64,000 nt of DNA from an uncultured Gammaproteobacteria bacterium (GCA_964590105.1 CAZPYM010000004.1:52198-116197); one strand, 5' to 3'; numbered from the stretch's first letter, positions 2,275-59,519 are shown. Notes: generated from the sequence alone by a model not told the origin. Numbers and translations: made by a program.

Positions 2275-2300
2275 CGCGAGGCACTCCTTTTATCCACGTG

Positions 2301-18954: not shown

Positions 18955-20115
18955 TTATTGTTCAATGCTGACCGGCGGCGGAGTATACTCTTCTTCAGCA
19001 ACTGCCGGCGATACTTCCGGCTCAACACTGATTTCCGGGACATCGACTGTTGATAATTCGGCTGGCGTAAATTCAAAACTATTTACCACCATTTGAAAAA
19101 TATTTGGGAAACTGGCTTCTTCCTTCAGTCCGATATTATAATTAATGATAAAGACTCGTCCGTCCTTTTCCAGATATACTGTAAAAGCATCAGGACTTTC
19201 CAACGCTGAATATTCATTAAACGTTTTGTATGTCTTCAAATCTTTTTCCGCCACATTTGGAACTTGCGCCAGATACCATTCTTTCAAACTTTGCTCGGCC
19301 GGCTTTTCATCAATTAGAATATTAATAAATTCATTTTGATTGGAACTGATCATCAGATCACTCGGATCCTGACTATTCAGCGGTTGGATAAGCCAGCTGA
19401 CCGGGTACAAAATTCTATAGCCGTAATTGCTATTGGTATAATATTTAAAATTTTCCATTTCCCACAATCTGACTGAACCCGCGTCTATCGGACTATAAAA
19501 GTTTTCAATTTCTTCCTTGTCTTTGTAAACATCGCCGTCGCTGTCGATCATGTTTTCTTTGGTGCCAAATAAACCTTCTTCAACATCAGTCAGGCCGTCC
19601 TTGTCAGCATCCGGTCCGCTAAGCAGGGACAAGGTGAATTTGTTAATCTTTGACGGATCAAATTTTTCAACTGTCTCGACAACAGGTGTTATCGGCTCTT
19701 CTTCCGGCAAAACAACTTCCGCCGGCTTTTCCTCCTCCACTACCGGCGCTGGTTGCGCGGGCATTGGCTGAATTTCAGCGATCGGCTGCAATTGGGTTTC
19801 CGCCGGCTTTTCATAGCTCTTGTAGAGCAAATAAGCTGAAACACCCACCACGATCACAAGCACGGCGATTATGATAACATTCAAAATCTTTTTTTTCTTG
19901 CCTGGATCCATTGGCGGCCGCGAAACAGCGCCCAGCCTGGATTTTTTTATCGGCTTGCCGGCGTTCGTGGATTCTACAGTCTTGCTTCCCAAATAATATT
20001 CCATCGGCATGGTATAAACCTTGCCATCTGCGTCACTTTTTGCTTCAGGCGTTGCGCCGGCCGGCGTTGGAGCGGCGGGCTGATTATTTTTCTTGTTTTC
20101 TGCGTCTTCAAACAT
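18955..20115 (-). CDS. membrane-anchored protein with thrombospondin type-3-like Ca-binding repeats
   Basis: Pro/Ala-rich N-terminal region, then one TM helix (ILNVIIIAVLVIVVGVSAYLLY). Extracellular part contains DADKDGLTDVEE and DSDGDVYKDKEE (DxDxDGxxDxxE). 386 aa. Confidence 0.45.
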   Translation of the reverse strand: MFEDAENKKNNQPAAPTPAGATPEAKSDADGKVYTMPMEYYLGSKTVESTNAGKPIKKSRLGAVSRPPMDPGKKKKILNVIIIAVLVIVVGVSAYLLYKSYEKPAETQLQPIAEIQPMPAQPAPVVEEEKPAEVVLPEEEPITPVVETVEKFDPSKINKFTLSLLSGPDADKDGLTDVEEGLFGTKENMIDSDGDVYKDKEEIENFYSPIDAGSVRLWEMENFKYYTNSNYGYRILYPVSWLIQPLNSQDPSDLMISSNQNEFINILIDEKPAEQSLKEWYLAQVPNVAEKDLKTYKTFNEYSALESPDAFTVYLEKDGRVFIINYNIGLKEEASFPNIFQMVVNSFEFTPAELSTVDVPEISVEPEVSPAVAEEEYTPPPVSIEQ

Positions 20116-20917: not shown

Positions 20918-21064
20918 AAATTTTTTATTAAATAATATCGATTAAATTATAAGTCACAATATACAAATGACAAATTACAAGCAAATTACAATCAATATGT
21001 CTCAATAATTCGTACATTCGCAAGACTCGTAATTTCGTATTATAAATATCAATTAATTTTATCG

Positions 21065-24000
21065 TTAATATATTGCCGGCCCCTTGCAGGTGGCAACTGC
21101 GCCAACTAAATCACCAAGGTTTGCCGAAAGAGTTGTCTCGTCCCCGAGGAAAAATAATCCACCTGTATCATCGGCATATTTTTTGAAAAAAGCCTCTTGA
21201 TTCACTGTCGGAGGACTCCCGTCTTTGCGAATATAAATCAAATGGATGTTAGCATTCTGCTCTTGGGCCAAAGCAATGTCCGCATTTCGAAGCGGCTCAT
21301 CACCTGTGTCACTAGCATCAGTAATCAAAATATAAGTTACTCTATCATAATCACCCTTAATTAAATTTGCGGCCTGAAATTCAACATCTATCCATTTTGC
21401 CATATTACCTGCGCCAACATAGCTTGATGTATTTATTTGGTCCTTCACAAATTGAGGCTCATTGCTTACCGGATCAACTAGCTTAACCTGACTATTTGAC
21501 GTCCAGCCAGCACTCCCGGTAAAACCCGCTCCTGATTGCTGCACCAAATAATAATCGTCCCCATCAAGAACTGTATGCGCCGCATCAACAATTGTGTTCA
21601 AAATTGTTCGATGATACTTTGTTACATCGTTTCCAGGATTATTGTCCATACTTAAGCTTCCATCTATAAAGAATACAAATAATGTCTTGTCGCAACCAGC
21701 TTCTGATTCCGCATCATACTCGTCATTGTCATCGGAAGTTGCGCAACCGAGATCATTGGGATAATCAATAAGTCCGTCACTGTCATTATCAAGCCCGTCT
21801 TTGCACTGCGGCACCTCACCCACTTCTGCCTGCGACGGCAGAGGCTGCCAACCGGAGTCTCCACCGCCCCAGCCTGGCACGAATTTATAGGAATACATAG
21901 GCGATGCATCCTCTTCTAAACTCGGGACTTCAAGGCTGAATTGCAGATCATAAGCAGAGGTATTCCCGGTTTCAAGAGGGTCAACTAGATATGAATACAC
22001 TGAATGCAAGTTTGGGTTTGTATCGTAAAAATTGGAGAACTTCTGATTGGCGCTATTGTAGCAAGTTTGCATATCATAACCAACCGGACAATTAACGCAA
22101 AACTCCTGCGGAACCACGCACTGATAGTCACTGGCTGATCCGCCCACCGGACAAGAATACGTATTTTCACCCGACCCGCCGCATTCCACGCCAGGATTTT
22201 CCTTGGTCGCCTGTTCCCAGGCAAAATGATTAAGCGGATCTGTTGGCAAAGTTTGTCCGAGCGCTTTGCCCAATTCTTTTTGCCACGACGGCCAGATACT
22301 GAAACTGCGTCCGCGCACGTATGTGCCCGCGTCAAGCAAAGGCGCGGCTCCATTGTGCGGCGGCGTTTTTTTGTACAATTCAATGTAGGCGCGCGTCAGC
22401 ACCATATCGCTGATTCTCTGCGTGTCCCTGATAAGCTCTGGTTTAACAATAGAAAGATTATTGGTCACTATATCAGTATTAAACCACAACAAATTTACCA
22501 GCTGGCTATAAATATTTTGAGTGGCCGCGTTCGATCCCTGCGAATAGCCGAGAACATAGATATTATTATAAATATTTACCACATCATCAGCATTGACGGG
22601 CGCCATATTGCTGGCCGCCGCGTAAACCGTGGTGCCGTCCTTGGCGCCGGTATAACAATACTTGCCAAACCGATCCTGCTGACAGTCAATTTTTACCTCT
22701 GCGGTAGTAGGCGCGGGATTTGGCGCGTAGCGCTGATACCAAATATCAGGCGGTAGAGCTTCTGGGTTTTCATAAATTCGAAGTGAAATCACGTCTGATG
22801 AATAATCATTGGTCGGGCCGGCTGATTTGTCGCGGACAAAGAAATATTGTTCAAAAAGCTCCGGATCTTCCCAAGGATCAGTGTCACTTTTGCATTTATG
22901 ATCGCCAATATCAATCAGCCCGTCGCTGTCATTATCTATACCATCATTGCACTGGTTTTCCGTGTCCTGCGCCAGCTCTTCCCAGATATTTTCGGCTCCG
23001 CCAATTAATCCCTTTTCTTTGGCCAATTCAGTCAAATTAATAATATAAAAATTTTCGTTCGGATCGCATTTTGAATCAATATAATCAACTGTGCATTTTG
23101 AAATCGAAGCCAACCCTTTGACATCATTTATATTTTCATCAAATTTCCAATAGCCAACCAAATTCGGCTCGCCCAACGGATTGACGAGATCTTCTGTCTG
23201 CGGATCCTTGGCAATATTCCAAATACGAAAATCATCCACATAGCCAGCCAGAGAAACCAGAGGGACTTGCGTTTTACCAAGTCCGCCGATAAACAAGCTT
23301 TGATAATCATTATCAACGGTGACGTCTTTTTCCGCTTGATTTCTGGGCCAGACATGCAAAACAGTATTTTCATTATCAGCCGGTGTTACGTCCACGCCAT
23401 TAACATACAAGGTTGTATTACCGCCAGCACCATCATATTTTAACGCAATGTGATTAAATCCTTTGCTCAATAAGCCAACTCCATCAGTTGTTGCGCGAAC
23501 AATACCATGAGTTGGCGTCTTTATCGTATAGATGATTGATGCTTTTTCCTCAGCGCAAGTGCAATTATTTGAGTTCGGCCCGTTTTCATACGACCACTCG
23601 CAATCATCGTCGCAATCCAAGCCCCATTTTCGCAAAGCCATCTGCACATGATTATTTGTTTTTCCGTCCTCAAAAGTACTGCTATCGCTTAAATTTTTAT
23701 AAAATATTCTGGCATATCTGTCTTCCGGAATTTCTTCGCTGTACAACCAAGTTTCAATTGTCCATGGATTATTTTCATTATTCATGAAACTCAAATTGCC
23801 GCTTCCTGAATCAGGAACCTTCACATAATCAAATGACTTGTCAAAATATATGCCGTAGCGCGGTTTGGGCGCTTTGCCGGCAAACTCAACTTCGCCGATT
23901 TCCAGTTTTGGCAAATCGTCTTCAAAACCAGGTCCGCCAAAATCACGGCAATAGAACAAGCCGACGTTAAAATTATTTTCGTAAATATAAGTTGTGTGAT

Positions 24001-27000
24001 ACTCGCCCGGCTTTATTTCTGATTGCATTTTTGACCATTTATTATTGCCTTCCTTGTCCGGCGCATAGGCTGCCGGCTCCCACAAATGATCGCAAAGGGT
24101 CACGTTCAAAAGCGCGGTGCCATATTTTTGCGCGCCGAGCGTACCGAGCGCGCCGCCGGTCAGTGGACTCGCTTCGGAAATGTTATCCTTGGTCACCACA
24201 ACATTGGCCATAATAGTGGCCGAGCCATTTTTCGCCAGATTACGAACATTGACAAAGTCGCTATCTTTTTTCTGGTTTGAAAGAGGTTGAATCGGCTCAT
24301 CAACGCAATCAGAACCATCCATTTTACAAGTATGAACAGAATCAACAATAGACATGTCGCTAGCCGTCCAGTCCCACACCCATTCATACGTTCCTGGCAT
24401 TTCTGTTAATTTCTGCTCTCCGCTTCTGGCCGTGGCCCTGAATGTATTGGTTTGATTGGCTTTTGTTACGAAAACCTGTTGCGGCTCAACAATCACATTA
24501 TCAAGCAGACAAATACTGTCGCCGGCAACAAAATTTAATTCAAGATTTACCGGCTCATAGGTTTCATCGCAATTATTTTTCAAGTTTGAAAATTTTAACT
24601 TATACTGCTTGCCGACCTGTAGCACTTGCTTTGGCGTAATGCTAAAATTAGTGTTCCCGACTATATTAGTCGACTCATTCATAGTCATCCCGACCTCGCA
24701 CTCCACAGTGGCTGCAAATCCGACTTTGACTAATAAATTTCGCACAAATTCTTTTGCTTTTGAATACCACGATCCCGCGCCCTGCGACAAGCCTGTCGGA
24801 CAACTACCGTCAGACATTAGATATAATTTTATAATAGCTTCGTCAGAATAAACTTTTTTATTAAAAGAAGTATAAAGCATAGCATTCGGACAAACATCAA
24901 CCGAGCCATTGACCGGTGAGCTCGCGGCATCATCAAAACCAAGCCCCGCCGTAGCTTCGCAAATTATTGGATCAATTATCGAATCATCTTTTTTACTCCA
25001 ATCATCAATATGCGGCAAAATATCTTTATATTTATTAATCAAATCAGGATCATTGGTTCTGAATGCAAAGTCTCCCATTCCGACCTGCGCCTCATCAGCT
25101 GGGTTTTCTTTAGTTGAAGTTTGAATCTCAGTATCGCCGATAATATATCCGGTTGCTACATCATAGAAAAAATTATTTTGCGTTGCGCCGGACTTCAAAG
25201 TTCCGTCCTCATTAAAGTAAACAGAATCCAAATAAACTTCCAAACCGCTCGGAACTGAAGTCGCCATTTGATACGGACTGCCATTCTGTCCATTGCTAAG
25301 GCCTATCGTGCACAACCCGGCATTTATTTCTGCCTGACTGCATTCGCAAATCAGATCCTCTCCAGCCTCCGGCGTACCATTGTTGCAATATGAAGGATTA
25401 TCATACGCATATGAAGAACCCAGATTTAAACATTTGGCGCTACAATAATCAGGCAGGGCGCAGGCACAATCATCTTCACCAAATAAACAAGAGACATATT
25501 CACTGCCGTCCAATTTTTTGCAAGTTGCTTCGCACTCTTCGTCATTCTTGCCATCGCCGTTATAATCCTCGGGTATTCCGTTGCCGCAACAATTGGAACA
25601 CTCACAATCAGGCGAACCAGCTAAGCACGCTTCGGTCTTGCTACCGGTAGCGCAATCTTGGGCCGACACAGCGCAAGACAAGGACAATATTTGTTTTCCG
25701 ACCTCGCCTTGACATGCTGCACAAGAAATCTTTTTCGCGCCGTCTTTTTCACAAAAAGGATTTGTCCCTTTATCGCAACAATCCGCATCAGTTCCTTTGT
25801 TGCACAGTATTTCAATCTGGCCACCTGCGCATTGATTGCAGTCAAGAATTTTTTGGCCGTCACAATCAGGATCATCTTGAAAACACGTTTCTTCTTTATA
25901 TCCGTCAGCGCAGCCATTTGTAACACCCACAATACAGTTGATTGTTTTTGTCTCGCACTCCTCGTCTTCTTGACACGGAATATCCACCGTACCGATACAG
26001 TCCGCTCCCTCGTTGCAAGCGACCTGTTTTTTGCCCACGCATCCGGGATCGCCGGCTTCACTAGCAGAACAAGCAATTTCCTTAGTACAATTACTAGTGC
26101 AAGTCGGGAAGCCTTTCCAAACGCAAGTATTGGTGCAATTGGACTCGCCTTCGCATTCTTCGCCAACCTCTAGAACGCCATTGCCACAAACTGCCGCGGC
26201 TAATTGTTCGCCGAGCTTATAGGCAGATCCTTTATATAAACATTTTTCATTTAATCCTGCTTCGCTGTTTTGCCCACCGAAATCAGCGTCTTCGCCGGAT
26301 TCTTTTTTTCCATTGCCACAAACAAAACCAGCCGCTGTTCCGGTATTCAAACAACCGGCTGTGCAGGCTGATCCCTTGGCCACGCAAGAGCAACCTTGTA
26401 ATCCGGACACCGGCACACAGGCCTGGCCATTAACATCCAGATAATCACAACCTTGGTCGCATTCTTCACCGGGCTCGATCTCGCCATTACCGCAACAATT
26501 AGACTGGGTCTTCGGATCAGCGCAATTGGCCAATGGTTCGCGGAGGCAAATCTCACTGCAGCCATCTTCATTTTCTATATTGCTGTCATCGCATTCTTCA
26601 CCCGGCTCAATCTCGCCATTGCCGCAAACAGCGGCAAAGGGAGTACTGCCAATCGCCTGGCATTTGTCATTGCAATACGGTTTAGTTTCCACCCCGAGGA
26701 GAGTATTGGTAATGCTGGCCACTACCGGCTTGGTACTCAGCCAATCCCAATCATAAGCAAAGGCGTCCAAAAGCTGACCGCTGGCACTGCATTCATCAGG
26801 CGCGGAATATGGCGCGGCCCAGTATTCAACTTTTTCTTTTTCCTGCTCCGACATATATTCTACCGGTGCGGTTTCCACGCGGTCTATTTTGCATTCTTCA
26901 GGATCATCTTTTGTTTTAAATATCCAACTAAAAGCGTCATATTGTCCGCTCGCGCCAATTTCAAATGATGACACAAAAGCGCACTGCGGATCCGGGGCTA

Positions 27001-30000
27001 GATATTCGTTTTCTGTTTGAATTGTTTCCAGTTCTGCCTCGTCAGTAATCACAGCATTATTTTCTTTTAAATTAACACAGGCAAACTGGATATTTTCGTC
27101 ATCCTGACAATTCGGAGTTTTAGAAATTTCAGCAAAAGAAACAATTATACCGGCCGCCTGGTCATAACAGCCGCAGAGATAATCAAGGTTTTTGTCTTCC
27201 GCTCCCACAGCTGAATAACCGCCGCTCACATCCGCTTTGCCGTCGGCGTCATCGTCTTTTCTATTGCCGCAGTCTCCGCCGGGCGCGTTCCCGGTGCTAT
27301 AATTCAGACCGGTCAAATTAACTCCGCTGTAACTTTTTACTCCATTCGTCACAACCATGCGATAATAAGTATTTGGCTCCATTTTATTCGGATGAAGAGA
27401 AATTTTCAATTCATGAATTGACGTGCCGTAATATGGATTCTCCACTTCCTGATAATCAATCTTGCTTTGATCCAGACCAAAATCAGTCAAAACTACGCAA
27501 TCTGACGAATAGCACGAATAAAGCTTGACTGTTTCCGGCATGAAGCTGTCCTTGTCCATGAAAGTATTAAAATTCGCGCCAATACTGGCATTAATACAGG
27601 CAAAATTGCAATTAGGATAATAGGAAATTATTTTCGGGTCAGCAAATTTAACTTTCAAAAAACCTTTTTTATATAAACTGTCAAATGTATCTTTTAATGG
27701 ATCATCTTGTGTCAACTCAGCTTCAGCCGCTATTTCCATTGGTTTGCCCGGAGGAGTTTCAAATGTCTGCCCCTGTCCGAGCTCTGACAAAGACTTCAAC
27801 TGAAAATACCCCGAACTGCTGATAAATTCTTTAGGAGCTTGGCAAATCAGGCCATCCGCTGGCTCAAAACAAGCATAGCCGGCAAATTCTGCTTTCTGCT
27901 TGTCTATGTCTTTGACCATATCCCACTGCCAATCCTTGTCGCTAAGACCGATTTCCTGGCACTGGTATTGGCCGGAAACAGTATATTTTTGCTTGCCGTC
28001 AATAGTTTTAATCAATCCGACCAGCGGACTCATTAGCAATTTATCCGGCACGCAATTCTCGCTTTTGGTTTTAAATTTCCAAGTGTAATCATTGAGCATA
28101 TTGACATAGCCCTCGAAAAAATCGCTGTAAGCGCTCACGCCGCCAGTACCGCCTTTTATTGTCACTTGATACCAAGTGTTTTCGTGTAGATTATGATTGC
28201 CTTCCTGCACGATAGAAGGAACCAAGTCATTTCCTTCGTTTAATAGTGAAGAATCCAAGCTGAATGCTGTCACCTGGTCTCCAATACAAAAACAATTATC
28301 TTTATTTATTTCCGGATCGCAAGTTTCATTACCCGGCTGTCCGTCAATATAGCAAGACAAATTAAGGTTAGTTAAATTAAAATCATTGGAATGCGCGTTG
28401 GTTATTGTCCGCGAAACGCAGTCATTTGGATTGCAAATATCAAAATTACATTCCCCGCCTTGAGTATTTAAGCATCTTTTTATTATAATATTATTTTGAA
28501 AACTATTTGCCTCGGGATCAGTCTTCATTATCATGTTGAAAGTAGCTGAAATAAGGCCGTTCGGACAGGCGTTAGTAGTATTTTTAAATGGCGACGGCGA
28601 CTGCGTATACTGTCCCGGCCAACAGCTCCTCTCAATCACTCGCGGATAAGTCGGCAAGGGGCCAGTACTCATCATCCACATGTATTCGGATGGCTCATAG
28701 CCAACCTCCACCGTACAAGTACCAACCGTCTGACAAACGCCGGTAGAACAACATTCTTCGCCCTCTGCGCAAGAGTTGGCGCTACAACTGCCTACAGTAA
28801 ATGAAACTGAATTACTCTGTTTTTGATCACTTTTCACAAAAACACCGCCGGACAAAGCTTTCTCCGGCACTACCGCATTTTCAATCAATATGGCCGACCA
28901 ATCGCCAAAGCTGGTCGCGATCCCCGGATCCGGAACCTTTGCGCATTGGCAAGTTTCATCCTCGTCTATGTCGCACGGAGCCACGCCATCCGGACAATTG
29001 ATCTTTGGCCCGCCGGTTTTGGAAAAATACACCTCACCTTCATTACCAAAATATTCGCCTTTAAAATCCACGCCAATGCCTTCAGGGCCATTATTCGGAT
29101 CAAGGAGACAAAGCCCTGGACCAGGAGGCCCTTCCACAATTTCATAATCATACGGATCGGTGACCAAACCCTGAGAAGTATATAAAACTATTTTGTATTC
29201 ATCGCTGTAAGCGCTCTCATCGGACAAAGCAGGGCTCGCAAAAGTGTTTAATATTGTTTCCGGAATTTTTATGACAACCTCACTGTCAGACCAGCTTTCC
29301 GGTCCGCAGCCAATCGCCGTAATCCAATCGTAATTGTCGCCGCCAATTAATCGATGAATCTCCACGTGTCCTGTATCATTACCAAAATATTGTCCTGAAA
29401 TAGTAATCAATTGCCCGATTGGCGCGGGCGCCGGCTCCACCATGTCAATTTTTGGCAGATTTTCTGATGGCACTATTTCAAATCGCACTGGATTGCTATA
29501 CAGATTTTTGCAAAGGCAATCAGCTATATTTTCTGGTGTTTGCTCGCAAACTGCTTTAGTTGTTTTATCCAAGCATTGTGGGCCTTTATCAATTACTGTA
29601 TTTTTTTTGCCTTTTTCTAATAACGGAATCTGCAGACTCAAAATTGTTTCCGGACTCCAAGCAAATCCAGCCCCCTGCAAAAAGTTAATGCCCCCGAGAA
29701 ATGCGGCATCGTCATCATCTTTCTGGCCGAAATTATTGCCGCCAACTCTTACTAAATTATTTACCGCCCCTTTATCGCAATGAACTTCAGGTGTCGGTTG
29801 ACAGCCCTGTAGTGTGACAGAACACAAACCAGGATAATTAATATTTGAATCAACAATAAAATCGCCTACCCAGCCGTCGTCATCATCAGTCGTGTCTTCA
29901 TTATTTAAATAATTAACAACCTTAATTGGGCCGGTAATCGCCTGCGCCGGCACTTTGGCAATTATTTGATAATTATTCCAAGCTGAACTAGCCTGACAGC

Positions 30001-31939
30001 CAAGCTCAGCCGGAATATAAGCTCCGCCCGGTCCGGTAAAATAAACCTTGCTGCTATCCGGGTCATAATTCAGAAACCCAGCACCAACAATAGAAACCAT
30101 ATTCCCCGGTCCGCCGGTTTTTGGCGCGACATCGGCAATCACCGGTTCAGTGGCGCAAAAACCAAGGCAAGCCGCGCCATCGCAGTCACTGTCAGTTTCG
30201 CAGGCGTTGGCTTCTTCATTGTCACAATTTTTCACACAAATTCCCGCGCATTCATCGTCACTACTACAGACCTCTCCGTCGCACTTGCCGCAATCCGGAT
30301 GATCCTTGCTACAAACAGGCAGACCATCCTGATCAAAACAATATTCCGGCAAAACTGAAACCTGAATTGTTTTCTCTCCCTTGTGGTCGTTAATATCCTC
30401 CACCTCGGCTTTCAGGCTGTGTTTGCCAATCTCCACGCCATCGGTGTCCCAGATGAAAAAACTGGAATATTCTAGCGGCGATTGACCGTCTGGAGGCGTG
30501 TCAATATCATAATAGGCGCCGTCAACAAACAAGCTGACATTACTCACTCCACCATCGTCAGTCGCATTAGTGTTTACTTCAACATCAGCATTCTGGCTGA
30601 CCGAGGTTGTGGGCGCTGTAAAATATACCTCCGGCGACTTGGTGTCAATTAATTCGCCACTGGTAAAGCTAGTGGAACACAAACTGCCGAGCGAACATGA
30701 GAGCCCCAGATCGCCGGCCAATGTTTTCACACCACCAGATTTCAGAGTTACTTTATAGGCGGTATTTTTATCAAAACAGAATAAATCCTGATTTGGTTCG
30801 GGACAAGCCACGCTCGGAGTAAAAGTAACTTTTTGTTTATTGACCGCGTCAACTTCCAGGTTGCCTTCGACGGCGATTTCTTCACTTTCCACAAAACCTT
30901 CATATTCAACATTCAAATTAATATAATCAAATTTAAGACAATTACCGCCCGTCCTGTACCAGGAAATATAAAACTCGCCATTGTCAGCATTTTCATAGCA
31001 AGTCGCCGGCACATCTACCTCGTTAATGCCCGGTGGCGGCAACCAATCAGTTTTTATCGCTGTTGAAACATCTCCGTTTATTTCATCGCCGCATTTAATA
31101 GTCATCTTCGCGTTGCTACCAGAATTAGCACTCTCAAAAATCAATTTAGCGGCCAAGGGTTCGGCGCTACCTATTTCCGTAATGTCAAAAAACACTTTCA
31201 TCGGCGTGGCACCCAGATACTCATTACTACAAACCACCCATGTATTATTCCATATGTTATCGTCCTTTATTATATCGCTCAAAATTGTTTCGCCGTTGCC
31301 ATTGTCTTCCTGGACTTCATAAGGTTCCAAGTTTTCATTCAACACGCCCTTTTCGCCCTGCTTAGTAATTGTAATATTATCAGCAGTAACCGAGTCAGGA
31401 TTAACTGCTTTGGAAAAAATCATCTTTACTTTAACATTTCTGATTGGTACATTGCCCTGCGGCGATACTGTCTTGACAATGAATGAAATCCCCGGCGGAC
31501 TCGGAATATAGCCCCCAGGAGTATACTCGCCAGTTCCGCCGCCGTCGGTTGCCTCAGACAATTTGGTTAGAACAAATGAAGTGATGGCATAAGCGGAAAA
31601 AATAATCACCAGTCCTATGAGACCATTGATCAACCACTTTTTGGCAGTAGTGACTTTTTCGGCATCGCCACCAGCTGTCATGTACAAAAATCCGGCGTAT
31701 AAAACTATTACCAGTCCTATCACACCGATAAATCCCAAAAATATTTTTATAATTTTCCCGATCGTTACTTTTAAATCCTGATTGCCAAGGCCGGATGCAG
31801 TCCCCACTTGATCAAGGCCGGCAACTGCTCCGTTGTCAGCAAAACTAATTCCGATAGAAAACAAAAATACGCCGGTAATGAGGAGAATCATCATCAGACT
31901 AAAAATTTTCCAATATTTTTTGCTCGGTCTGACCAGCAT
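21065..31939 (-). CDS. giant (3624 aa) multidomain cell-surface protein: signal peptide plus pilin-like two-helix hairpin, IPT/TIG-like domains, Cys-rich CGNGxxExGEECD repeats, LamG-like domain, C-terminal VWA domain
   Basis: Single uninterrupted ORF. N-terminal signal/TM, then the hairpin IIKIFLGFIGVIGLVIVLYAGFLYMTAGGDAEKVTTAKKWLINGLIGLVIIFSAYAITSFVL (~nt 31564-31756). IPT/TIG-like PVIADVAPKTGGPGNMVSIVGAGF. Myxococcus-type Cys repeats VCGNGEIEPGEECDD and CCGNGEIEPGEECDQ (~nt 26400-26700). Cys-bracketed Asp loops CKDGLDNDSDGLID and CNDGIDNDSDGLID. MIDAS-like FFIDGSLSMD near the C-terminus (~nt 21070-21700). Confidence 0.7.
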   Translation of the reverse strand: MLVRPSKKYWKIFSLMMILLITGVFLFSIGISFADNGAVAGLDQVGTASGLGNQDLKVTIGKIIKIFLGFIGVIGLVIVLYAGFLYMTAGGDAEKVTTAKKWLINGLIGLVIIFSAYAITSFVLTKLSEATDGGGTGEYTPGGYIPSPPGISFIVKTVSPQGNVPIRNVKVKMIFSKAVNPDSVTADNITITKQGEKGVLNENLEPYEVQEDNGNGETILSDIIKDDNIWNNTWVVCSNEYLGATPMKVFFDITEIGSAEPLAAKLIFESANSGSNAKMTIKCGDEINGDVSTAIKTDWLPPPGINEVDVPATCYENADNGEFYISWYRTGGNCLKFDYINLNVEYEGFVESEEIAVEGNLEVDAVNKQKVTFTPSVACPEPNQDLFCFDKNTAYKVTLKSGGVKTLAGDLGLSCSLGSLCSTSFTSGELIDTKSPEVYFTAPTTSVSQNADVEVNTNATDDGGVSNVSLFVDGAYYDIDTPPDGQSPLEYSSFFIWDTDGVEIGKHSLKAEVEDINDHKGEKTIQVSVLPEYCFDQDGLPVCSKDHPDCGKCDGEVCSSDDECAGICVKNCDNEEANACETDSDCDGAACLGFCATEPVIADVAPKTGGPGNMVSIVGAGFLNYDPDSSKVYFTGPGGAYIPAELGCQASSAWNNYQIIAKVPAQAITGPIKVVNYLNNEDTTDDDDGWVGDFIVDSNINYPGLCSVTLQGCQPTPEVHCDKGAVNNLVRVGGNNFGQKDDDDAAFLGGINFLQGAGFAWSPETILSLQIPLLEKGKKNTVIDKGPQCLDKTTKAVCEQTPENIADCLCKNLYSNPVRFEIVPSENLPKIDMVEPAPAPIGQLITISGQYFGNDTGHVEIHRLIGGDNYDWITAIGCGPESWSDSEVVIKIPETILNTFASPALSDESAYSDEYKIVLYTSQGLVTDPYDYEIVEGPPGPGLCLLDPNNGPEGIGVDFKGEYFGNEGEVYFSKTGGPKINCPDGVAPCDIDEDETCQCAKVPDPGIATSFGDWSAILIENAVVPEKALSGGVFVKSDQKQSNSVSFTVGSCSANSCAEGEECCSTGVCQTVGTCTVEVGYEPSEYMWMMSTGPLPTYPRVIERSCWPGQYTQSPSPFKNTTNACPNGLISATFNMIMKTDPEANSFQNNIIIKRCLNTQGGECNFDICNPNDCVSRTITNAHSNDFNLTNLNLSCYIDGQPGNETCDPEINKDNCFCIGDQVTAFSLDSSLLNEGNDLVPSIVQEGNHNLHENTWYQVTIKGGTGGVSAYSDFFEGYVNMLNDYTWKFKTKSENCVPDKLLMSPLVGLIKTIDGKQKYTVSGQYQCQEIGLSDKDWQWDMVKDIDKQKAEFAGYACFEPADGLICQAPKEFISSSGYFQLKSLSELGQGQTFETPPGKPMEIAAEAELTQDDPLKDTFDSLYKKGFLKVKFADPKIISYYPNCNFACINASIGANFNTFMDKDSFMPETVKLYSCYSSDCVVLTDFGLDQSKIDYQEVENPYYGTSIHELKISLHPNKMEPNTYYRMVVTNGVKSYSGVNLTGLNYSTGNAPGGDCGNRKDDDADGKADVSGGYSAVGAEDKNLDYLCGCYDQAAGIIVSFAEISKTPNCQDDENIQFACVNLKENNAVITDEAELETIQTENEYLAPDPQCAFVSSFEIGASGQYDAFSWIFKTKDDPEECKIDRVETAPVEYMSEQEKEKVEYWAAPYSAPDECSASGQLLDAFAYDWDWLSTKPVVASITNTLLGVETKPYCNDKCQAIGSTPFAAVCGNGEIEPGEECDDSNIENEDGCSEICLREPLANCADPKTQSNCCGNGEIEPGEECDQGCDYLDVNGQACVPVSGLQGCSCVAKGSACTAGCLNTGTAAGFVCGNGKKESGEDADFGGQNSEAGLNEKCLYKGSAYKLGEQLAAAVCGNGVLEVGEECEGESNCTNTCVWKGFPTCTSNCTKEIACSASEAGDPGCVGKKQVACNEGADCIGTVDIPCQEDEECETKTINCIVGVTNGCADGYKEETCFQDDPDCDGQKILDCNQCAGGQIEILCNKGTDADCCDKGTNPFCEKDGAKKISCAACQGEVGKQILSLSCAVSAQDCATGSKTEACLAGSPDCECSNCCGNGIPEDYNGDGKNDEECEATCKKLDGSEYVSCLFGEDDCACALPDYCSAKCLNLGSSYAYDNPSYCNNGTPEAGEDLICECSQAEINAGLCTIGLSNGQNGSPYQMATSVPSGLEVYLDSVYFNEDGTLKSGATQNNFFYDVATGYIIGDTEIQTSTKENPADEAQVGMGDFAFRTNDPDLINKYKDILPHIDDWSKKDDSIIDPIICEATAGLGFDDAASSPVNGSVDVCPNAMLYTSFNKKVYSDEAIIKLYLMSDGSCPTGLSQGAGSWYSKAKEFVRNLLVKVGFAATVECEVGMTMNESTNIVGNTNFSITPKQVLQVGKQYKLKFSNLKNNCDETYEPVNLELNFVAGDSICLLDNVIVEPQQVFVTKANQTNTFRATARSGEQKLTEMPGTYEWVWDWTASDMSIVDSVHTCKMDGSDCVDEPIQPLSNQKKDSDFVNVRNLAKNGSATIMANVVVTKDNISEASPLTGGALGTLGAQKYGTALLNVTLCDHLWEPAAYAPDKEGNNKWSKMQSEIKPGEYHTTYIYENNFNVGLFYCRDFGGPGFEDDLPKLEIGEVEFAGKAPKPRYGIYFDKSFDYVKVPDSGSGNLSFMNNENNPWTIETWLYSEEIPEDRYARIFYKNLSDSSTFEDGKTNNHVQMALRKWGLDCDDDCEWSYENGPNSNNCTCAEEKASIIYTIKTPTHGIVRATTDGVGLLSKGFNHIALKYDGAGGNTTLYVNGVDVTPADNENTVLHVWPRNQAEKDVTVDNDYQSLFIGGLGKTQVPLVSLAGYVDDFRIWNIAKDPQTEDLVNPLGEPNLVGYWKFDENINDVKGLASISKCTVDYIDSKCDPNENFYIINLTELAKEKGLIGGAENIWEELAQDTENQCNDGIDNDSDGLIDIGDHKCKSDTDPWEDPELFEQYFFVRDKSAGPTNDYSSDVISLRIYENPEALPPDIWYQRYAPNPAPTTAEVKIDCQQDRFGKYCYTGAKDGTTVYAAASNMAPVNADDVVNIYNNIYVLGYSQGSNAATQNIYSQLVNLLWFNTDIVTNNLSIVKPELIRDTQRISDMVLTRAYIELYKKTPPHNGAAPLLDAGTYVRGRSFSIWPSWQKELGKALGQTLPTDPLNHFAWEQATKENPGVECGGSGENTYSCPVGGSASDYQCVVPQEFCVNCPVGYDMQTCYNSANQKFSNFYDTNPNLHSVYSYLVDPLETGNTSAYDLQFSLEVPSLEEDASPMYSYKFVPGWGGGDSGWQPLPSQAEVGEVPQCKDGLDNDSDGLIDYPNDLGCATSDDNDEYDAESEAGCDKTLFVFFIDGSLSMDNNPGNDVTKYHRTILNTIVDAAHTVLDGDDYYLVQQSGAGFTGSAGWTSNSQVKLVDPVSNEPQFVKDQINTSSYVGAGNMAKWIDVEFQAANLIKGDYDRVTYILITDASDTGDEPLRNADIALAQEQNANIHLIYIRKDGSPPTVNQEAFFKKYADDTGGLFFLGDETTLSANLGDLVGAVATCKGPAIY

Positions 31940-32098
31940 GGACAGTCAAGTTATATTTTAAATCAAGATAAATTTACAAATTTCTACAAATGTTACTAAT
32001 GAACCGGCACGGAAAGCTTCAATAATTCGTAAATTCGTATTTTCGAACTCTTATGTAAATTTGTCTTTCGGTTTATTTTCAATTAATCTTTTAAAACT

Positions 32099-34183
32099 CT
32101 AATGCTCTGGCACACTACACTCAGTTTTGTCTTCTCCGACCAAATTGAACTCCCCCTTTTGTGGACAACAGGAAGTACCAGGGCCACCAATACTTGAACA
32201 TATGCTCTCAGCAACTCCCCCAGTATCTTTTGTCGGGCTATAACAATTCATTCGTGTATCTTTTACTTCTGATTTAATAACCGGCGCGTAAATCGGAATC
32301 ATGGGACTGGCTTCATCATATTCAGCAAAAGGTCCATGGCTAATGGATATTTGGGTAGCCAGAGGCTGAATCATCCCCCCGGCATCAAGATATTCTCCCA
32401 TGTTGGGATCATACCAGCGACTAAAATCTGACTCATCAGAATTCTTGCCGAGAAGCTCAACCTCGGTATCAACCGAATAAGCGTCCAAATCTTCATTAAA
32501 ATTCGCTGTAATCAATATTTGTAAATCCTCAATATTTTCAGTCTTATTATCCGGCAAAACATTTTCGAGAAATGGCGGAGTCAGGTCGAGCGTCTTGCCG
32601 GTTAAAAAATCCCAAAAATAATTATCTATTTGAGCTACTTTGTCGTCGGCGTCGGCATTGATATTGCCTGGGCCCTCGGCTTTGTCATTGGCATTGCCGT
32701 CAAGAGAATTGCCACCCATGTCCATGATGCCCGTGCCGGGTAGAGCCACGCCCTCGCCGACTAATTTCGCCGCTAGAATTTTGGTAACCAAAGTGGCGTC
32801 AGTAGGCAAGCAAAAGGCCGGCTCGCCGCAGGAATTTTTCGCGCCGCCGGCGCACTCGGTGCCTGAAATAAACTGAATGGTTTTATATTTATTGATGCCG
32901 ACTTTCCACTTGCCCGGCAAATGGTTGGTCGAACAATCGCCAATATTTCCGTTCAAAGAAATAATTTGCGCTTCATTATCTTCATCCCCTCCTTTGCACC
33001 CTTGCGTCTGGGTCAAGGGCGGAATTACCGGTTCATTAAAATAAACATAAACACCTTGATTTAAATAGACTTTGTGATCGCAATCCACTTTGGAACAGCC
33101 GATTTCTTTTGGCGAACATTTACAGCCAGCCGGATTACTGACCGGATAGCTGACATCAGCCGGCAAAACCGCGCTGATTTTCGGCGGAGTCAAGTCAAGC
33201 ATGGTGCTGGTGGTAAACCGCCACTTGTAATCAGGATTTTCCGATGTAAATACTGTTTGCGCCGGATTATTTTCTTTTTTAATGCCATTTTTCAAATAAA
33301 CAATATAAGCCATATCTTCTTCAGGACTACCCAGATGATCTTTTTTGCTATCGCCATAAGGATTGAAAATAATGGTCTGATGATCTTCAGTCAAAATTGC
33401 GTAACCAGGAACCAATTTTAAATCATCGTTTATATCCTTAACGTCTGACGCAAGGCAAGTAATCTCAGCCGGATTATCATAATTTTCCGCAATCATATCC
33501 GAGCATTTGAAAACGCGGAAAGCATCTGCTTTCAAAGCGCCGCAATTTGCCAGCTTCGAACCGTCCGGCATATCAGGGCAAAGTCCATTAACATCCATGT
33601 CAATAACCGAACTCGGCAGAACCGGTGTTTTGAAAGTAACAAGAATCATAGTATTGCGCGGCACGCCGGTTTGTTCCGGCGCCGGATAATGGCTTTGGAT
33701 CACATCGCCAAAAGCGCCATTGGACAATCCATATCCGCCGCCAAGAAAACCCGCTTTTTGATATACGGTTCCCGCCGGACTCATTTCCTGGCCGGAAAAC
33801 ATTTTCAATAAAAATGCTGTAATGGAATAAGCGGAAAATATTATCGCAAGACCAATGACAGCATTTATCAGCCACTTTTTGGCTTTAGTGACTTTTTCAG
33901 GATCACCGCCGGCCGTCATGTACAAAAATCCGGCATATAAAACAATACAAATAGCGATAATACCAATCACGCTTAAAAATATTTTTATGATATTGCCGAT
34001 TATTACCCGTAAATCCTGTTTTACCATTCCCGCTTCCTGCGCCACAATATCAAGATTGGCCGCGGCATCATTGCTCTGCGCATGCGCAATAACCGGAACA
34101 AACAAAAAAACTGCCAATATAAATACAAAACAACCGGCAGTTATTTTTGTGGCTAACTGAAATGAGTTTTTGCGAAAAATCAT
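32099..34183 (-). CDS. large (about 695-709 aa) surface protein with N-terminal signal peptide and the same pilin-like hairpin as the giant protein
   Basis: Signal peptide ...FVPVIAHAQS. Hairpin IIKIFLSVIGIIAICIVLYAGFLYMTAGGDPEKVTKAKKWLINAVIGLAIIFSAYSITAFLL is about 80% identical to the giant-protein hairpin. The rest is extracellular and Cys-containing. Start at 34183 (SD-like GAGGGG upstream) is preferred over 34228. Confidence 0.6.
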   Translation of the reverse strand: MIFRKNSFQLATKITAGCFVFILAVFLFVPVIAHAQSNDAAANLDIVAQEAGMVKQDLRVIIGNIIKIFLSVIGIIAICIVLYAGFLYMTAGGDPEKVTKAKKWLINAVIGLAIIFSAYSITAFLLKMFSGQEMSPAGTVYQKAGFLGGGYGLSNGAFGDVIQSHYPAPEQTGVPRNTMILVTFKTPVLPSSVIDMDVNGLCPDMPDGSKLANCGALKADAFRVFKCSDMIAENYDNPAEITCLASDVKDINDDLKLVPGYAILTEDHQTIIFNPYGDSKKDHLGSPEEDMAYIVYLKNGIKKENNPAQTVFTSENPDYKWRFTTSTMLDLTPPKISAVLPADVSYPVSNPAGCKCSPKEIGCSKVDCDHKVYLNQGVYVYFNEPVIPPLTQTQGCKGGDEDNEAQIISLNGNIGDCSTNHLPGKWKVGINKYKTIQFISGTECAGGAKNSCGEPAFCLPTDATLVTKILAAKLVGEGVALPGTGIMDMGGNSLDGNANDKAEGPGNINADADDKVAQIDNYFWDFLTGKTLDLTPPFLENVLPDNKTENIEDLQILITANFNEDLDAYSVDTEVELLGKNSDESDFSRWYDPNMGEYLDAGGMIQPLATQISISHGPFAEYDEASPMIPIYAPVIKSEVKDTRMNCYSPTKDTGGVAESICSSIGGPGTSCCPQKGEFNLVGEDKTECSVPEH

Positions 34184-34253
34184 TGTCCCCTCTGCGTTTG
34201 ACAACCAGTCAGCTCTCTCAGGCGCCAAAACGCTATTATTCTTTTATTTTTGT

Positions 34254-36626: not shown

Positions 36627-37244
36627 CTACGCGCCATAATCAACTGCTGAAAAATGCGTAAACCGCCAGAACGGCCAACCACGAAGCCAGACTCTGCCGA
36701 CAATAAGATCGCGAAAAACCGGTCCAAAACTTCGCGAGTCCAGACTGAATTCGCGATTATCGCCAAGAACATAATATTCATCAGGCCCGAGCGTCCATGA
36801 TTTGTTGCCAACTGTTTTAACTCCGTCCGGAATATATTTTTCATCCAGCATAAACTTGGTCATGCCGACTTTGTTTGGATAAATATAGATTTGATTATCA
36901 ACCATTTCCACTTTTTCGCCCGGTAAACCAATCACACGTTTAATAAAATATTGCGACGGATCTTTTGGATATTTAAAAACAACTATGTCCCCGCGATCTG
37001 CTTCTGAAAAACGATAACTGATTTCATCAATAATCAAATATTCATGATCATAAAAGCTCGGCTCCATTGACGCACCCTTGACATAAAAAGGTTGAATCAA
37101 AAAATATCTGACCGGAATTATGATCGCGAGCGACACGCAGACAACTTTCAAAAGATCCCAAAAAAACTGGATCGTCTTTTGAACCGGCGTTAAAGTTTTT
37201 TCATATATTTCCTTGTCGACAAAACCCATTTTTTTTTGCGGCAA
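36627..37244 (-). CDS. lepB: signal peptidase I (S26 family)
   Basis: TM anchor. Catalytic Ser box KGASMEPSF. Lys box KRVIGLPGE. GDNREFSLDSR box. Confidence 0.85.
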   Translation of the reverse strand: MPQKKMGFVDKEIYEKTLTPVQKTIQFFWDLLKVVCVSLAIIIPVRYFLIQPFYVKGASMEPSFYDHEYLIIDEISYRFSEADRGDIVVFKYPKDPSQYFIKRVIGLPGEKVEMVDNQIYIYPNKVGMTKFMLDEKYIPDGVKTVGNKSWTLGPDEYYVLGDNREFSLDSRSFGPVFRDLIVGRVWLRGWPFWRFTHFSAVDYGA

Positions 37245-41994: not shown

Positions 41995-42149
41995 TTTCTC
42001 ACCTCCGTGTTGTTGTTTCAAACTCTATACTTCATTCTAAGTTTAGCACAAAAGAAAAAATTTGTCAAGGGTGGCAAATGTCCAGATTACTCGCATATCA
42101 ACTTCGAATCTGTATATAGATTTGTAGATCTGTACCCTTTAAAAAAAAT

Positions 42150-42180
42150 GGAGCCCCGTCGGTATGAACGACAGGGCTCC
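42150..42180 (-). terminator. terminator-like hairpin (gagccccgtcg...cgacagggctc, one mismatch) with an A-run on the plus strand (T-run on the minus strand)
   Basis: Read directly. Downstream of the 42189..42470 gene. Confidence 0.4.
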
Positions 42181-42188
42181 GTTGAGAA

Positions 42189-42470: not shown

Positions 42471-42534
42471 GACGATCTCCTTTTTCCCCGCCCATGGCGG
42501 GGATCTTTGTGGATTTTCCTTCTTCAAGTTTGCT

Positions 42535-43056: not shown

Positions 43057-43113
43057 GTTCCTTTCTCCTTCCTCCGCCGCAGGCGAAGAGTTTTGGTTAC
43101 TTCTTCATTTCAC

Positions 43114-53903: not shown

Positions 53904-53945
53904 TATAATGGTAAAGCGATAAAGAAAACTGGGACAGTGATAAAT

Positions 53946-53973
53946 GAGAAGTGAAATTTAAATGTCACTTCTC
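53946..53973 (+). promoter_or_regulatory. perfect 9-bp inverted repeat gagaagtga-N10-tcacttctc in the leader of the second RSH gene
   Basis: Read directly. Related sequence tgaaatttaaatRtcacttctcac upstream of rpsU (35024-35056), and gagaagtgaaat upstream of der (38990-39010). Confidence 0.4.
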
Positions 53974-53995
53974 ACATCCCACCTCCCCCCGCTAT

Positions 53996-58400: not shown

Positions 58401-59519
58401 TATTGCGCTGCAAAAAAATGCACCGCTAAATTGGGCGAGGGCGGAGTCTGCACCGACGCCACCAAAGATATCTGTCTGTCCGGCGAATGTAAAGATGAAA
58501 AGTGCGTGGCTCCGGCAACCGGACCACCCCCGCCGGCCCCGGTCTGCACTCCTACTTGTACTAATGCCTGGGAAGAATGCCAGGCCGGCACGCCCAATGC
58601 CTGCAAACTAAAAGCCGGCATGTGCAACCTAGAAGCTGACTGCGCGGCGGCTACCGACAAAAAAACCTACTGCAATACGACAAAACATGAATGTGAAACA
58701 CCAAAAGCCTGCAAAAAAACAAGCGACTGCACAGCGACACAATATTGCGACACCAAAGCAAAAGCTTGCAAAGACAAACTGGCTTCAGGATTAGCCTGCG
58801 AAGATGCTACTCAATGTCTTTCAATCAACGGCTGCACGAACAAAAAATGCGCCTGCGAAAAATCAGCTGATTGTCCAAAATCTCAATACTGCGGTGGGAC
58901 AACTTTTGAATGCATCGAAAAAACAAAAGTCGGAGACTCTTGTCCGTTCAGCACTACATTTTGCAAAGATATTTGCATCAGTGGTATCGCCAAAGCCGAT
59001 CCCGCAGATGCAACAAAAAGTATCTGCATTTGTGATAATACCTCTCAATGCGAAGACGGCAAATACTGTTCAAATAACGGCGCCGAAAAAGACAAATGTG
59101 TTGACAAGCTGGCGGAAGGGGCAAAGTGCGCAATGGACGGCGTGTGCAAATCAGGGAAATGCCTTATAGATAGTGGAAGTGGAAAAACAGAAGGCGTGTG
59201 TTCAAAACCGGCGGCAGTGGCGCCAGGCGGAGCAGGCGGCGGAACGCCGGTTGTCTCAATCCTCCTGCCAAATTTTCTCGGCACTGATGACCCGTCCGAT
59301 GTTATCGGCCGTGTTATCAATTATATTGTCGGACTAGCCGGCACCGCGGCCATGGTCATGTTTATTTACGGCGGAGCGATGTGGCTGATTTCAGCCGGCC
59401 GGCCGGAATATGTTAGTAAAGGGAGAGACACCATGATGTGGGCGGCGATCGGACTGTTTCTGATTTTTACGAGTTATGTGCTGATTAAATTTATTGTTAA
59501 ATTGCTCGGTTCAGGATAA
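55473..59519 (+). CDS. 1348-aa Cys-rich secreted protein with N-terminal signal peptide and a C-terminal pilin-like two-helix hairpin
   Basis: Signal peptide MKRLPAFLFIFTISIVLFIFLPIAPAEA. Hundreds of Cys in repeated CxxDCxxxQYC-type modules, with an internal tandem duplication of about 560 nt (~57980-58540 versus ~58540-59100). C-terminal VINYIVGLAGTAAMVMFIYGGAMWLISAGRPEYVSKGRDTMMWAAIGLFLIFTSYVLIKF is homologous in architecture to the N-terminal hairpins of the 3624-aa and 709-aa proteins. Confidence 0.65.
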   Translation: MKRLPAFLFIFTISIVLFIFLPIAPAEAAIWDIQYNGANYCCNSSYNTCYNAFDWAYLIYNDNKSKSDANPNNDTNIATDTASMCREIGDCIATTCENKPDPLTAKCSINKPSACKNEFQCDQQNPDDALPTDPKLVWDGAKCLSNGINCSSKSDCPAQQYCCLSKHDDCTPYTCTIVKPTYDITCDENISNCLKTAPQQCEEDCIQAKQDKCDECRQEKIEKCNTACDDLTENQDDCKTGCPDGVDDAIDNLEICQNDCQNIQGAATYVCTKPCLDQALKDCRNEQPGGACKECEQDYECITENCASIDTTIGEQAISPLEMVKFVCRAKPCVKNKDCTDAGLYGTYCHIDNLDPNHNECLPLKQLGDSCLSSDDCAPGLHCPNFVCVAECIDDAECPKSQYCNWYGLNGSPTIKGDPNSDHICYDLVPVGGSCKYSNQCLSGLTCSGGKCSKAGPPPPPSTDEKYFTGSKCYNAITSLKDLCPTEKFHMWDGIKCNNTIFLIKTYCNTSFSYDSYTQMDAAVLAGEDVSQMLAAEANMFDDPADADLYINPLTTISFPCGIIDDQLINCDTKGKCDILFPFPLDNWYDDQCHKDAQACDTHADCTVEKYCDPTTKKCFAKKYAGESAPDVFACFGGYFSNKCTCTGGTTVGCPAGLECESMFNCAAPKACGPSNPDCPAGKFCNIDNQKLPINQCLAKQEKGKGCVSPNECITDMCFDGKCDDAYAPGTKKEGESCTANPKTPDCVKGFYCDPAGNTCSAQKKTGDECAFAVECLSIKCTANKCEPMPGEQKYGTKAEGVACTDYATIKQNDCSSGLFCSEGTQKVCVKQAPVGESCSANYYCISNSCDLASGGTKKCLSVAGAPGEVCSPACNAWETCSNSACKLNAGACKVEADCAAEATNKYCNTTTNKCEAPKLCTDAKDCTDAQYCATTCKDKLTSGLACTAPEQCFSSEGCLESKCACTDTKECPKDNYCAAKKCTAKLGEGGVCTDATKDICLSGECKDEKCVAPATGPPPPAPVCTPTCTNAWEECQAGTPNACKLKAGMCNLEADCAAATDKKTYCNTTKHECETPKACKKTSDCTATQYCDTKAKACKDKLASGLACEDATQCLSINGCTNKKCACEKSADCPKSQYCGGTTFECIEKTKVGDSCPFSTTFCKDICISGIAKADPADATKSICICDNTSQCEDGKYCSNNGAEKDKCVDKLAEGAKCAMDGVCKSGKCLIDSGSGKTEGVCSKPAAVAPGGAGGGTPVVSILLPNFLGTDDPSDVIGRVINYIVGLAGTAAMVMFIYGGAMWLISAGRPEYVSKGRDTMMWAAIGLFLIFTSYVLIKFIVKLLGSG

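Follow-up and report, generated by a model that had tools for sequence, protein, structure and literature searches.

The DNA analysed here is a stretch of 64,000 nucleotides (CAZPYM010000004.1:52198-116197, assembly GCA_964590105.1), the whole of which we call the window and in which positions are counted from the first letter. Its minus strand encodes a giant protein of 3624 aa (G) and, directly upstream, a neighbour of 694 aa (M). Both begin with a signal peptide and a VirB2-like pilin module and continue into large ectodomains. We suggest, with a probability of about one half, that G and M are modular VirB2-type pilins that act as a pair in membrane-anchored display, each carrying a large extracellular array on its outside-facing C-terminus. 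A third protein of the window, of 1348 aa, is predicted from its sequence to bear its array on the N-terminus of the module. The three proteins and their parts are as follows.

21065..31939 (-): G, with signal peptide, VirB2-like pilin module, flexible Gly/Pro linker and ectodomain of ~3490 aa; 3624 aa in all
31838..31939 (-): signal peptide of G, aa 1-34, ending in ...GISFA↓DN (arrow, cleavage), with basic N-region, hydrophobic core and AXA-like site
31556..31819 (-): pilin module of G, aa 41-128, made of pre-helix, helix 1, loop TAGGDAEKVTTAKKW and helix 2; PF18895 35-42 bits, PF04956 18-26 bits
32099..34183 (-): M, with signal peptide, pilin module, disordered linker and beta-rich ectodomain of tandem Ig-like (Big_5) domains; 694 aa
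33794..34072 (-): pilin module of M, aa 38-130 of 694; PF18895 46-52 bits, PF04956 28.7-30.5 bits
55473..59519 (+): 1348-aa protein, with signal peptide, Cys-rich ectodomain (11% Cys, Dickkopf_N/EB-like) and C-terminal pilin module
59274..59516 (+): pilin module of the 1348-aa protein, aa 1268-1348, with two hydrophobic helices and a net-positive loop; PF18895 41-49 bits

A preliminary description of this DNA had given the giant open reading frame (ORF) the length that we find, and the 1348-aa ORF the same coordinates. It had also given M a length of 709 aa, and an ORF of that length does exist from a TTG codon (32099-34228, minus strand); public gene callers begin at the internal Met at 34183, which is probably the true start and yields the 694 aa used here. 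G and M have exact matches on public record, that of G on a contig of 594,201 bp, and public names for the three proteins are not on record.

G and M have the same order of parts: a signal peptide with AXA-type cleavage site (SFA↓D in G, AHA↓Q in M), a pre-helix of ~20 residues, a hydrophobic helix, the loop TAGGD(A/P)EKVT(T/K)AKKW and a second hydrophobic helix. Over ~90 residues the modules of G and M are 64% identical, which bears out the shared signal peptide and hairpin that had been noticed earlier. The third hairpin, likewise placed correctly at the C-terminus of the 1348-aa protein, is 25% identical to them and has the same layout. When all six reading frames of the window were searched with a hidden Markov model of the hairpin, these three copies were the only ones recovered (E 1e-42 to 1e-45; next best match, 0.22). 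Shorter relatives of the 1348-aa protein, P0186 and P0243, bear the same C-terminal module.

By hydropathy, all three proteins lack membrane segments beyond the signal peptide and the two helices, and the predicted topology fits the earlier claim that everything after the hairpin is extracellular. The loop between the helices has a net charge of +1 to +2 in the three proteins. As it is net positive, it probably faces inside, with the termini and the ectodomain outside; the ectodomain would then occupy an outside terminus whether the module is N-terminal or C-terminal. AlphaFold2 models place the helices of G at residues 56-88 and 93-133 with a predicted local distance difference test score (pLDDT) of ~90. 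M (mean pLDDT 86, ectodomain >90) is modelled as a helical hairpin, a disordered linker of 18 residues and a compact beta-rich ectodomain.

Pilin identity of the shared module

All three proteins exceed the curated cut-off of the T4SS_pilin family (PF18895, 26.6 bits), T4SS being the type IV secretion system: as whole proteins they score 35.1 (G), 46.0 (M) and 41.4 bits (1348-aa protein), and as isolated modules 42.5-52 bits. For TrbC/VirB2 (PF04956, cut-off 27.9 bits), M passes with 28.7 bits (isolated module 30.5), whereas G with 18.1 (26.3) and the 1348-aa protein with 16.2 (22.8) stay below. Profile searches thus place the hairpin in a T4SS pilin family and give no indication of an unrelated family of transmembrane anchors, which sustains the VirB2/TrbC-like reading of the preliminary description.

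As a reference for established pilins we used eight genes annotated as VirB2/TrbC, each located between virB1 and virB3, from plasmids with mating-pair formation system T (MPF_T). Alignment of the module to their profile (hhalign) gave E=1.4e-4 and a probability of 53%, with 59 columns in register from the pre-helix to helix 2; alignment to VirB2 of the Ti (tumour-inducing) plasmid alone gave E=6.7e-4 over 66 columns. The hairpin of the ATP synthase c subunit (AtpE), taken as control, gave E=0.4 and a single aligned column. The profile comparison thus suggests homology to established VirB2 over the mature pilin, at moderate significance.

A search with the hairpin only returned 58 stand-alone pilins of 106-168 aa, nearly all of them matching PF18895 only, with identities of up to 65%. 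Residues 1-140 of G are collinear with a whole stand-alone precursor, and its signal peptide aligns with the signal peptides of these precursors. VirB2/TrbC pilins have a long signal peptide that is cut by signal peptidase I. Every residue that is invariant or nearly so in the small pilins is also present in both fusions (G72, Y81, G83, M87, G91, A99, I108-L110, I112, Y117-I119). Two of the closest stand-alone pilins belong to tandem arrays, one with six and one with eight pilin genes, as has been described for Patescibacteria; there is no VirB4 Pfam match within 10 kb of these two arrays.

Hydrophobic composition could in principle make an ordinary two-helix anchor, unrelated to VirB2, look like a pilin. 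In keeping with such an artefact, a profile search of PDB sequences with the hairpin gives only chance transmembrane matches (E>0.3; PF18895 has no relative with a solved structure), PF04956 is below threshold in two of the three proteins, and the only NCBIfam matches (NF045849, a pilin-like family of Mycoplasma integrative and conjugative elements) are below threshold in all three (20-34 bits vs 40). What speaks against it are the PF18895 scores, above cut-off in all three, the array pilins with up to 65% identity to the module, and an alignment to genuine VirB2 that spans the full hairpin where the AtpE control aligns one column. Moreover, conservation extends beyond hydrophobicity to polar and Gly positions (Y81, G83, M87, G91 and the loop). 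We therefore regard a hydrophobicity artefact as essentially excluded; judged by sequence, the three modules are VirB2-type pilin homologues. This identity as such is already known, since some relatives of M carry the names "pilin", "TrbC/VirB2 family protein" or "MMCAP2_0565 family pilin-like conjugal transfer protein" in NCBI.

The M-G pair in related genomes

The M-G pair is an old, vertically inherited core locus of its lineage, and neither a strain-specific island nor a member of a T4SS cluster, because the pair and its flanking synteny are conserved across 81 related loci (80 species-representative genomes and one metagenome contig). In 77 of them an M-like gene (~570-840 aa, measured as stop-to-stop ORF) lies directly upstream, on the same strand, of a giant with N-terminal pilin module; the four loci without the pair are cut by contig or locus ends. 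Complete giants have 907-3461 aa (median 2828), and thirty more, with up to 3660 aa, run off the fetched DNA. The conserved genes upstream are lepB (69/81), hisS (71/81) and yqeY (65/81); downstream of the giant, where the flank reaches, follow two single-pass proteins with TSP3/EF-hand repeats and then ftsA/ftsZ. Horizontal acquisition of the locus was considered and ruled out by this synteny together with the GC content, which is flat and unremarkable. The spacer between M and G (31940-32098) has 159 nt and is AT-rich in the window; most related loci have almost no gap between the two ORFs, or an overlap.

Relatives of M occur in Falkowbacteria, Magasanikbacteria, Komeilibacteria, Uhrbacteria and unclassified Patescibacteria. 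The GTDB representatives contain no exact match to a 48-mer of this DNA. The source organism, placed by the taxa of these relatives, would be an ultrasmall bacterium of the Patescibacteria, or Candidate Phyla Radiation (CPR). The four named groups we take to be GTDB class ABY1. Dozens of species-representative records with the M-G pair and Patescibacteria-type synteny (L011-L013, L018, L019 and others) are titled 'uncultured Gammaproteobacteria bacterium'. On records that bear the pair, this title is probably a labelling error in submitted sets of metagenome-assembled genomes.

The hairpin is the best conserved part of M: it is 66% identical to that of 38 orthologues, and identity peaks at 73% in the region where helix 1 gives way to the loop; the figure for the ectodomain is 46%. 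Across 78 genomes, M and G hairpins from the same genome are 60% identical, as against 50% for M and G of different genomes, 50% among M and 52% among G. The own G is the best match to M in 26 of the 78 genomes and among the top five in 48. The hairpins of M and G show concerted evolution genome by genome; this is the safe term, physical co-adaptation being hypothetical. Identical residues are encoded by identical codons at a frequency of 0.49 in same-genome pairs, compared with 0.40 expected from codon usage and 0.36 across genomes. The excess of 0.49 over 0.40 suggests that occasional gene conversion contributes to the likeness, and as it is only modest we rejected gene conversion as the only cause.

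Conservation is strong in the ectodomain of M too, where certain Cys, Trp, Asn and Pro positions do not vary. G, on the other hand, is a mosaic: residues 1-200, 400-1900, 2400-2700 and 3000-3300 are common to most orthologues, while residues 200-400, 1900-2400, 2700-3000 and the last ~320 are lineage-specific. Conserved blocks with variable inserts and tips would correspond to an adhesin-like design. The ectodomain of G comprises Big_7, TIG and Big_5 domains, four CGNG Cys repeats, a LamG-like region and the lineage-specific C-terminal tip. If it consists mostly of tandem beta-sandwich domains, its length could be of the order of 100 nm (our own estimate, at ~4 nm per domain of ~100 residues).

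Of the domains that the preliminary description had named in G, TIG and the Cys repeats are confirmed. TIG scores 31.9 bits against a cut-off of 20.9, and the Cys repeats, described as CGNGxxExGEECD, reach 34.8 against 20.8 with TIGR02232 and occur in four CGNG..E.GE copies (residues 1772-1929). The LamG-like domain stays below threshold in G itself (22-24 bits vs 27.6) and is clear in orthologues (96 bits in P0231). A terminal VWA domain in G could not be confirmed: the match to PF00092 is weak (E=0.038, 14.7 bits; DGSLS, a DxSxS motif), nothing matches the C-terminus at E<0.01, and it lacks similarity to the other 41 giant C-termini compared, 8 of which bear VWA. Across the 42 giants the C-terminal 260 residues vary, with VWA in 8, fn3 in 4, and also TIG, Kazal or Cys-rich modules.

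The module itself is conserved far outside this genome. Searched with a profile of the three window copies, a set of 1.84 billion cluster representatives gave 67,685 matches at E<=1e-3, of which 18,902 reach E<=1e-10. Among the 150 best matches are giants with one N-terminal module (2341-4039 aa), C-terminal modules behind Cys-rich ectodomains, and stand-alone pilins. Fusion partners elsewhere include PKD, TIG/GEVED, LamG, Big_5/Big_7 and Dickkopf-like arrays. Appending extracellular domains to a PF18895 module is a general habit of the phylum Patescibacteria.

The same search brought up a further type of protein. Many of the best matches (125 of ~147 top matches, in a ranking that favours multi-module proteins because scores are additive) hold 2-15 tandem PF18895 modules with no signal peptides between them (P0121, P0126, P0136, P0177 and others). 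P0121 has 7 modules in 606 aa and P0126 has 15-17 in 1775 aa. We found no description of such tandem 'polypilins' in the literature examined.

Membrane anchor, pilus subunit or envelope scaffold

Together, these data suggest a model for the display of M and G. The precursors would be exported by Sec and then cleaved by signal peptidase I. The two helices would enter the membrane as a hairpin whose ends both face outward and whose Lys-rich loop is cytoplasmic, which corresponds to the membrane-stored state of VirB2-type pilins. The Gly/Pro linker would carry the array of Ig-like, TIG, Cys-repeat and lectin-like domains through the monoderm wall, and the hairpin would stay in the membrane as anchor, with M and G acting as a pair. 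M, with its conserved ectodomain, would probably be the base or partner; G would extend as a long fibril whose scaffold is conserved, and its distal tip, which varies, would make contact with a host or surface. The conserved, concerted hairpins could reflect contact with each other, with a pool of small pilins or with a T4SS platform. The homology, the architecture, the predicted topology, the conserved pair, the constrained hairpin and the mosaic giant with variable tips form the basis from which we infer cleavage, anchoring rather than polymerisation, contact between M and G, and adhesion. Anchoring is favoured over polymerisation because an appendage of ~3500 residues is hard to fit to the ~12 A rise and five-fold (C5) symmetry of conjugative pili (PMC12037004), and because the locus of the pair contains neither T4SS genes nor a pilin array.

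Several points weigh against anchored display by an adhesive pair. The adhesive role is deduced from domain types only, and Foldseek matches the ectodomain of M to generic tandem bacterial Ig-like (BIg) domains only. Variable host ligands for M are made less likely by the good conservation of that ectodomain. Part of the likeness between the M and G hairpins may stem from gene conversion (0.49 vs 0.40), so that it does not prove contact. Even the small PF18895 proteins are only predicted pilins (PMC12857230). Finally, a plain anchor needs neither the cytoplasmic loop motif nor all family-invariant residues, and their retention points to continued recognition by a machinery, which would fit M and G as pilus subunits too.

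According to this alternative, M and G are minor or tip pilins whose hairpins are extracted by a T4SS and polymerised with small VirB2-like major pilins, so that the adhesin modules end up on a pilus, either at the tip or sparsely incorporated along it, as would mirror PilB (vWA) and PilC (lectin) of Streptococcus sanguinis. It would explain why the fusions retain the whole precursor layout of the stand-alone pilins with all their invariant residues, the loop motif included. It would also account for the strength of conservation: hairpins that are 50-52% identical across genomes, as compared with a reported average of 25% for array pilins (PMC12102498), fit conserved initiator or minor subunits next to variable major ones. 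The locus has a single M-G pair; small pilin genes in other genomes form arrays of 6-8. Solved conjugative pili have both termini on the exterior and the positive loop toward the lumen, so that an extension would point outward; modular pilins have a precedent in type IV pili (T4P; PMC8179133, PMC9934059); and of 3,035 Patescibacteria assemblies, 2,417 (~80%) have VirB4. Against these points stand the window itself, in which profile scans find no virB4, virB6, virD4 or small pilin gene and no other T4SS ATPase or channel gene, the fact that a Patescibacteria T4SS pilus has never been observed (PMC12857230), the need for an ectodomain of 3500 aa to pass the assembly site and the cell wall, and the absence of any T4SS pilin with a grafted domain from the literature searched. 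We consider incorporation into a pilus the main alternative, though rather unlikely on balance. Slightly less likely again is its most far-reaching form, in which M and G would be the first modular members of the conjugative-type (VirB2) pilin family, built by the Patescibacteria T4SS into a pilus that they initiate or tip and that serves as a host-attachment organelle of the ABY1 class. M and G could also form a conserved wall-spanning or surface-layer structure, maybe linked to division, that has co-opted the hairpin as anchor and lost its link to the T4SS. The core locus with housekeeping and division genes in most relatives (lepB, hisS and yqeY upstream, ftsA/ftsZ downstream), the ectodomain of M with its invariant Cys, Trp, Asn and Pro, and the conserved adjoining membrane proteins with Ca-binding TSP3 repeats would agree with such a scaffold, as would a module that is joined to many unrelated ectodomains and repeated in tandem multi-module proteins, in the manner of a generic membrane module. 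However, the variable inserts and tips of G look ligand-facing, the retained pilin loop motif argues against a fully decoupled anchor, and gene neighbourhood is weak functional evidence in small streamlined genomes, so that we regard a scaffold as improbable.

Arrays of VirB2-like pilins are known from the literature as a hallmark of the Patescibacteria T4SS, and the pilins have been treated as small proteins (PMC12102498, PMC10633639, PMC12857230). A T4SS with such an array is essential for epibiotic growth of Southlakia epibionticum, the only species tested (PMC10633639), and a phylum-wide T4SS survey reports that no adhesins were detected in its dataset (PMC12102498). In the literature that we searched full-text, VirB2-type modules on large ectodomains, the conserved M-G pair and concerted evolution are not described. 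What appears to be new is the conserved adjacent M-G module (77/81) in a lepB-hisS-yqeY-M-G-TSP3-ftsA/ftsZ neighbourhood, the concerted evolution of the hairpins per genome, and the build of the giants from a conserved scaffold, variable inserts and variable C-terminal tips. M and G may be the adhesins that the survey did not find.

Patescibacteria make up a large share of bacterial diversity, and their cultivated members live attached to hosts; the M-G pair is a concrete candidate for the missing contact apparatus. Its large conserved ectodomains offer epitopes, and with them a practical handle on whether PF18895 proteins are located in the membrane or in a filament. If M and G polymerise, the modular-pilin principle extends from type IV pili to conjugative-type pili, and a T4SS filament with a giant adhesin of variable tip would supply the adhesin missing from the survey and help to explain why T4SS pilin genes are essential. 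If they do not polymerise, a pilin fold has been reused as a general anchor for surface display, by a module that is extremely abundant in the phylum.

Genomic surroundings and relation to known systems

The remaining features close to the pair are a signal peptidase gene upstream and two membrane protein genes downstream.

36627..37244 (-): signal peptidase I (LepB), PF10502 149 bits
20258..20917 (-): single-pass membrane protein of 219 aa with extracellular TSP3/EF-hand-like Ca-binding repeats (PF18884 and topology), directly downstream of G
18955..20115 (-): single-pass membrane protein of 386 aa with TSP3-like repeats (profile and topology), second gene downstream of G

In the order lepB-hisS-rpsU-yqeY-M, lepB lies four genes upstream of M. 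LepB represents the enzyme class predicted to process the three precursors; its proximity is context only. Where the flank extends so far, the 219-aa gene recurs downstream of the giant in 18 loci and the 386-aa gene in 14, and the two TSP3 proteins may share a surface system with M and G. A scan of the locus for promoters and terminators gave nothing decisive: a strong promoter-like site (11/12) lies at 20946-20973, upstream of the 219-aa gene, and there is no terminator-like site between M and G.

According to profile scans, the window as a whole is housekeeping chromosome, with genes for NrdD, FtsZ, FtsA, HisRS, LepB, LytR, EngA, Pth, DprA, a Mur ligase and TopA, and also two RelA/SpoT genes, ParB, RF and tRNA-Leu. 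The two RelA/SpoT-family genes lie in tandem directly upstream of the 1348-aa gene (52260-55447, plus strand; 547 and 498 aa, each with HD_4, RelA_SpoT and TGS), a duplication that is unusual in a small genome. At the right end of the window are ParB (62142-63020), a ParA-like ORF (63044-63868) and tRNA-Leu(CAA) (63908-63993). GC skew is negative over the entire window and does not switch; the replication origin is therefore outside the window. The region 41089-43572 has a GC content of 0.50 vs 0.43 and overlapping ORFs without family matches. Its plausible genes encode small secreted low-complexity proteins, e.g. one of 310 aa that has a signal peptide and is rich in His, Tyr and Trp in its core and in Lys, Arg and Ser in its tail.

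Another giant gene begins ~4 kb to the left of window position 1 (L006 11889-17642, contig SRR8437217_11955). Its product, at least 1918 aa before it runs off the contig, has an N-terminal signal/anchor and a Cys-rich extracellular region and no pilin module. The same genome therefore has several giant surface proteins with different anchors.

Among known systems, the giants of Omnitrophota (bioRxiv 10.1101/2023.11.21.568195) are likewise proteins of multi-thousand residues with Ig- and lectin-like repeats in small-celled, probably host-dependent bacteria. They belong to another phylum, reach tens of thousands of residues and adjoin loci that resemble type II secretion systems or T4P, and the preprint describes no VirB2-type module. 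The PrgB-type LPXTG adhesins of Gram-positive conjugation have the same role as proposed here, in that a large adhesin is tied, at least by the ancestry of its anchor, to a monoderm T4SS; the T4SS gene sets of Patescibacteria are reported to lack this role. M, G and the 1348-aa protein bear no sequence relationship to them, are anchored by a pilin hairpin, are encoded outside a T4SS operon and have no LPXTG in their last 60 residues; M has one LPGTG further in (aa 481), with no membrane segment after it.

PilB (vWA) and PilC (lectin) of Streptococcus sanguinis (PMC8179133, PMC9934059) follow the same principle, with adhesive grafts on the outward end of low-copy pilins, next to plain ones, in a monoderm, and the likeness extends to the VWA-ended giant orthologues and to the LamG domains with their lectin fold. 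They belong to an unrelated superfamily. The proteins of the window have no class III leader, their grafts are 10-50 times larger and their incorporation into a filament is hypothetical. The first 45 residues of all three lack a prepilin-peptidase leader (G↓F/M-x-x-x-E), in place of which they have signal peptides of the Sec/SPase I type; the likeness to T4P is functional only.

Closer relatives are the diderm TrbC/VirB2 pilins (PF04956; Ti VirB2, TraA, TrhA), with which the three proteins share a signal peptide, the helix-loop-helix, the positive loop, the outer termini and homology at the profile level. M, G and the 1348-aa protein differ from them in being much larger, encoded outside a virB1-virB3 context and hosted by a monoderm; cyclisation, lipid binding or polymerisation would be hypothetical for them, and two of the three fall below the PF04956 cut-off. 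Closest of all are the VirB2-like pilins of Patescibacteria (PF18895; PMC12102498, PMC10633639), which are of the same family and phylum, with up to 65% identity, and have the same precursor layout, including a Lys-containing LY[AG]G..[WY]MT[AS]GG loop. The marks of these small pilins, a size of ~100-170 aa and a T4SS cluster or array, are absent from M, G and the 1348-aa protein within the window. Known members are small (~106-170 aa) and occur in arrays of 2-11, often near virB4, whereas ours add from 560 to 3490 extracellular residues. Compared with the array pilins, M and G have the more conserved hairpin and form a fixed pair of one medium and one giant protein in a housekeeping locus.

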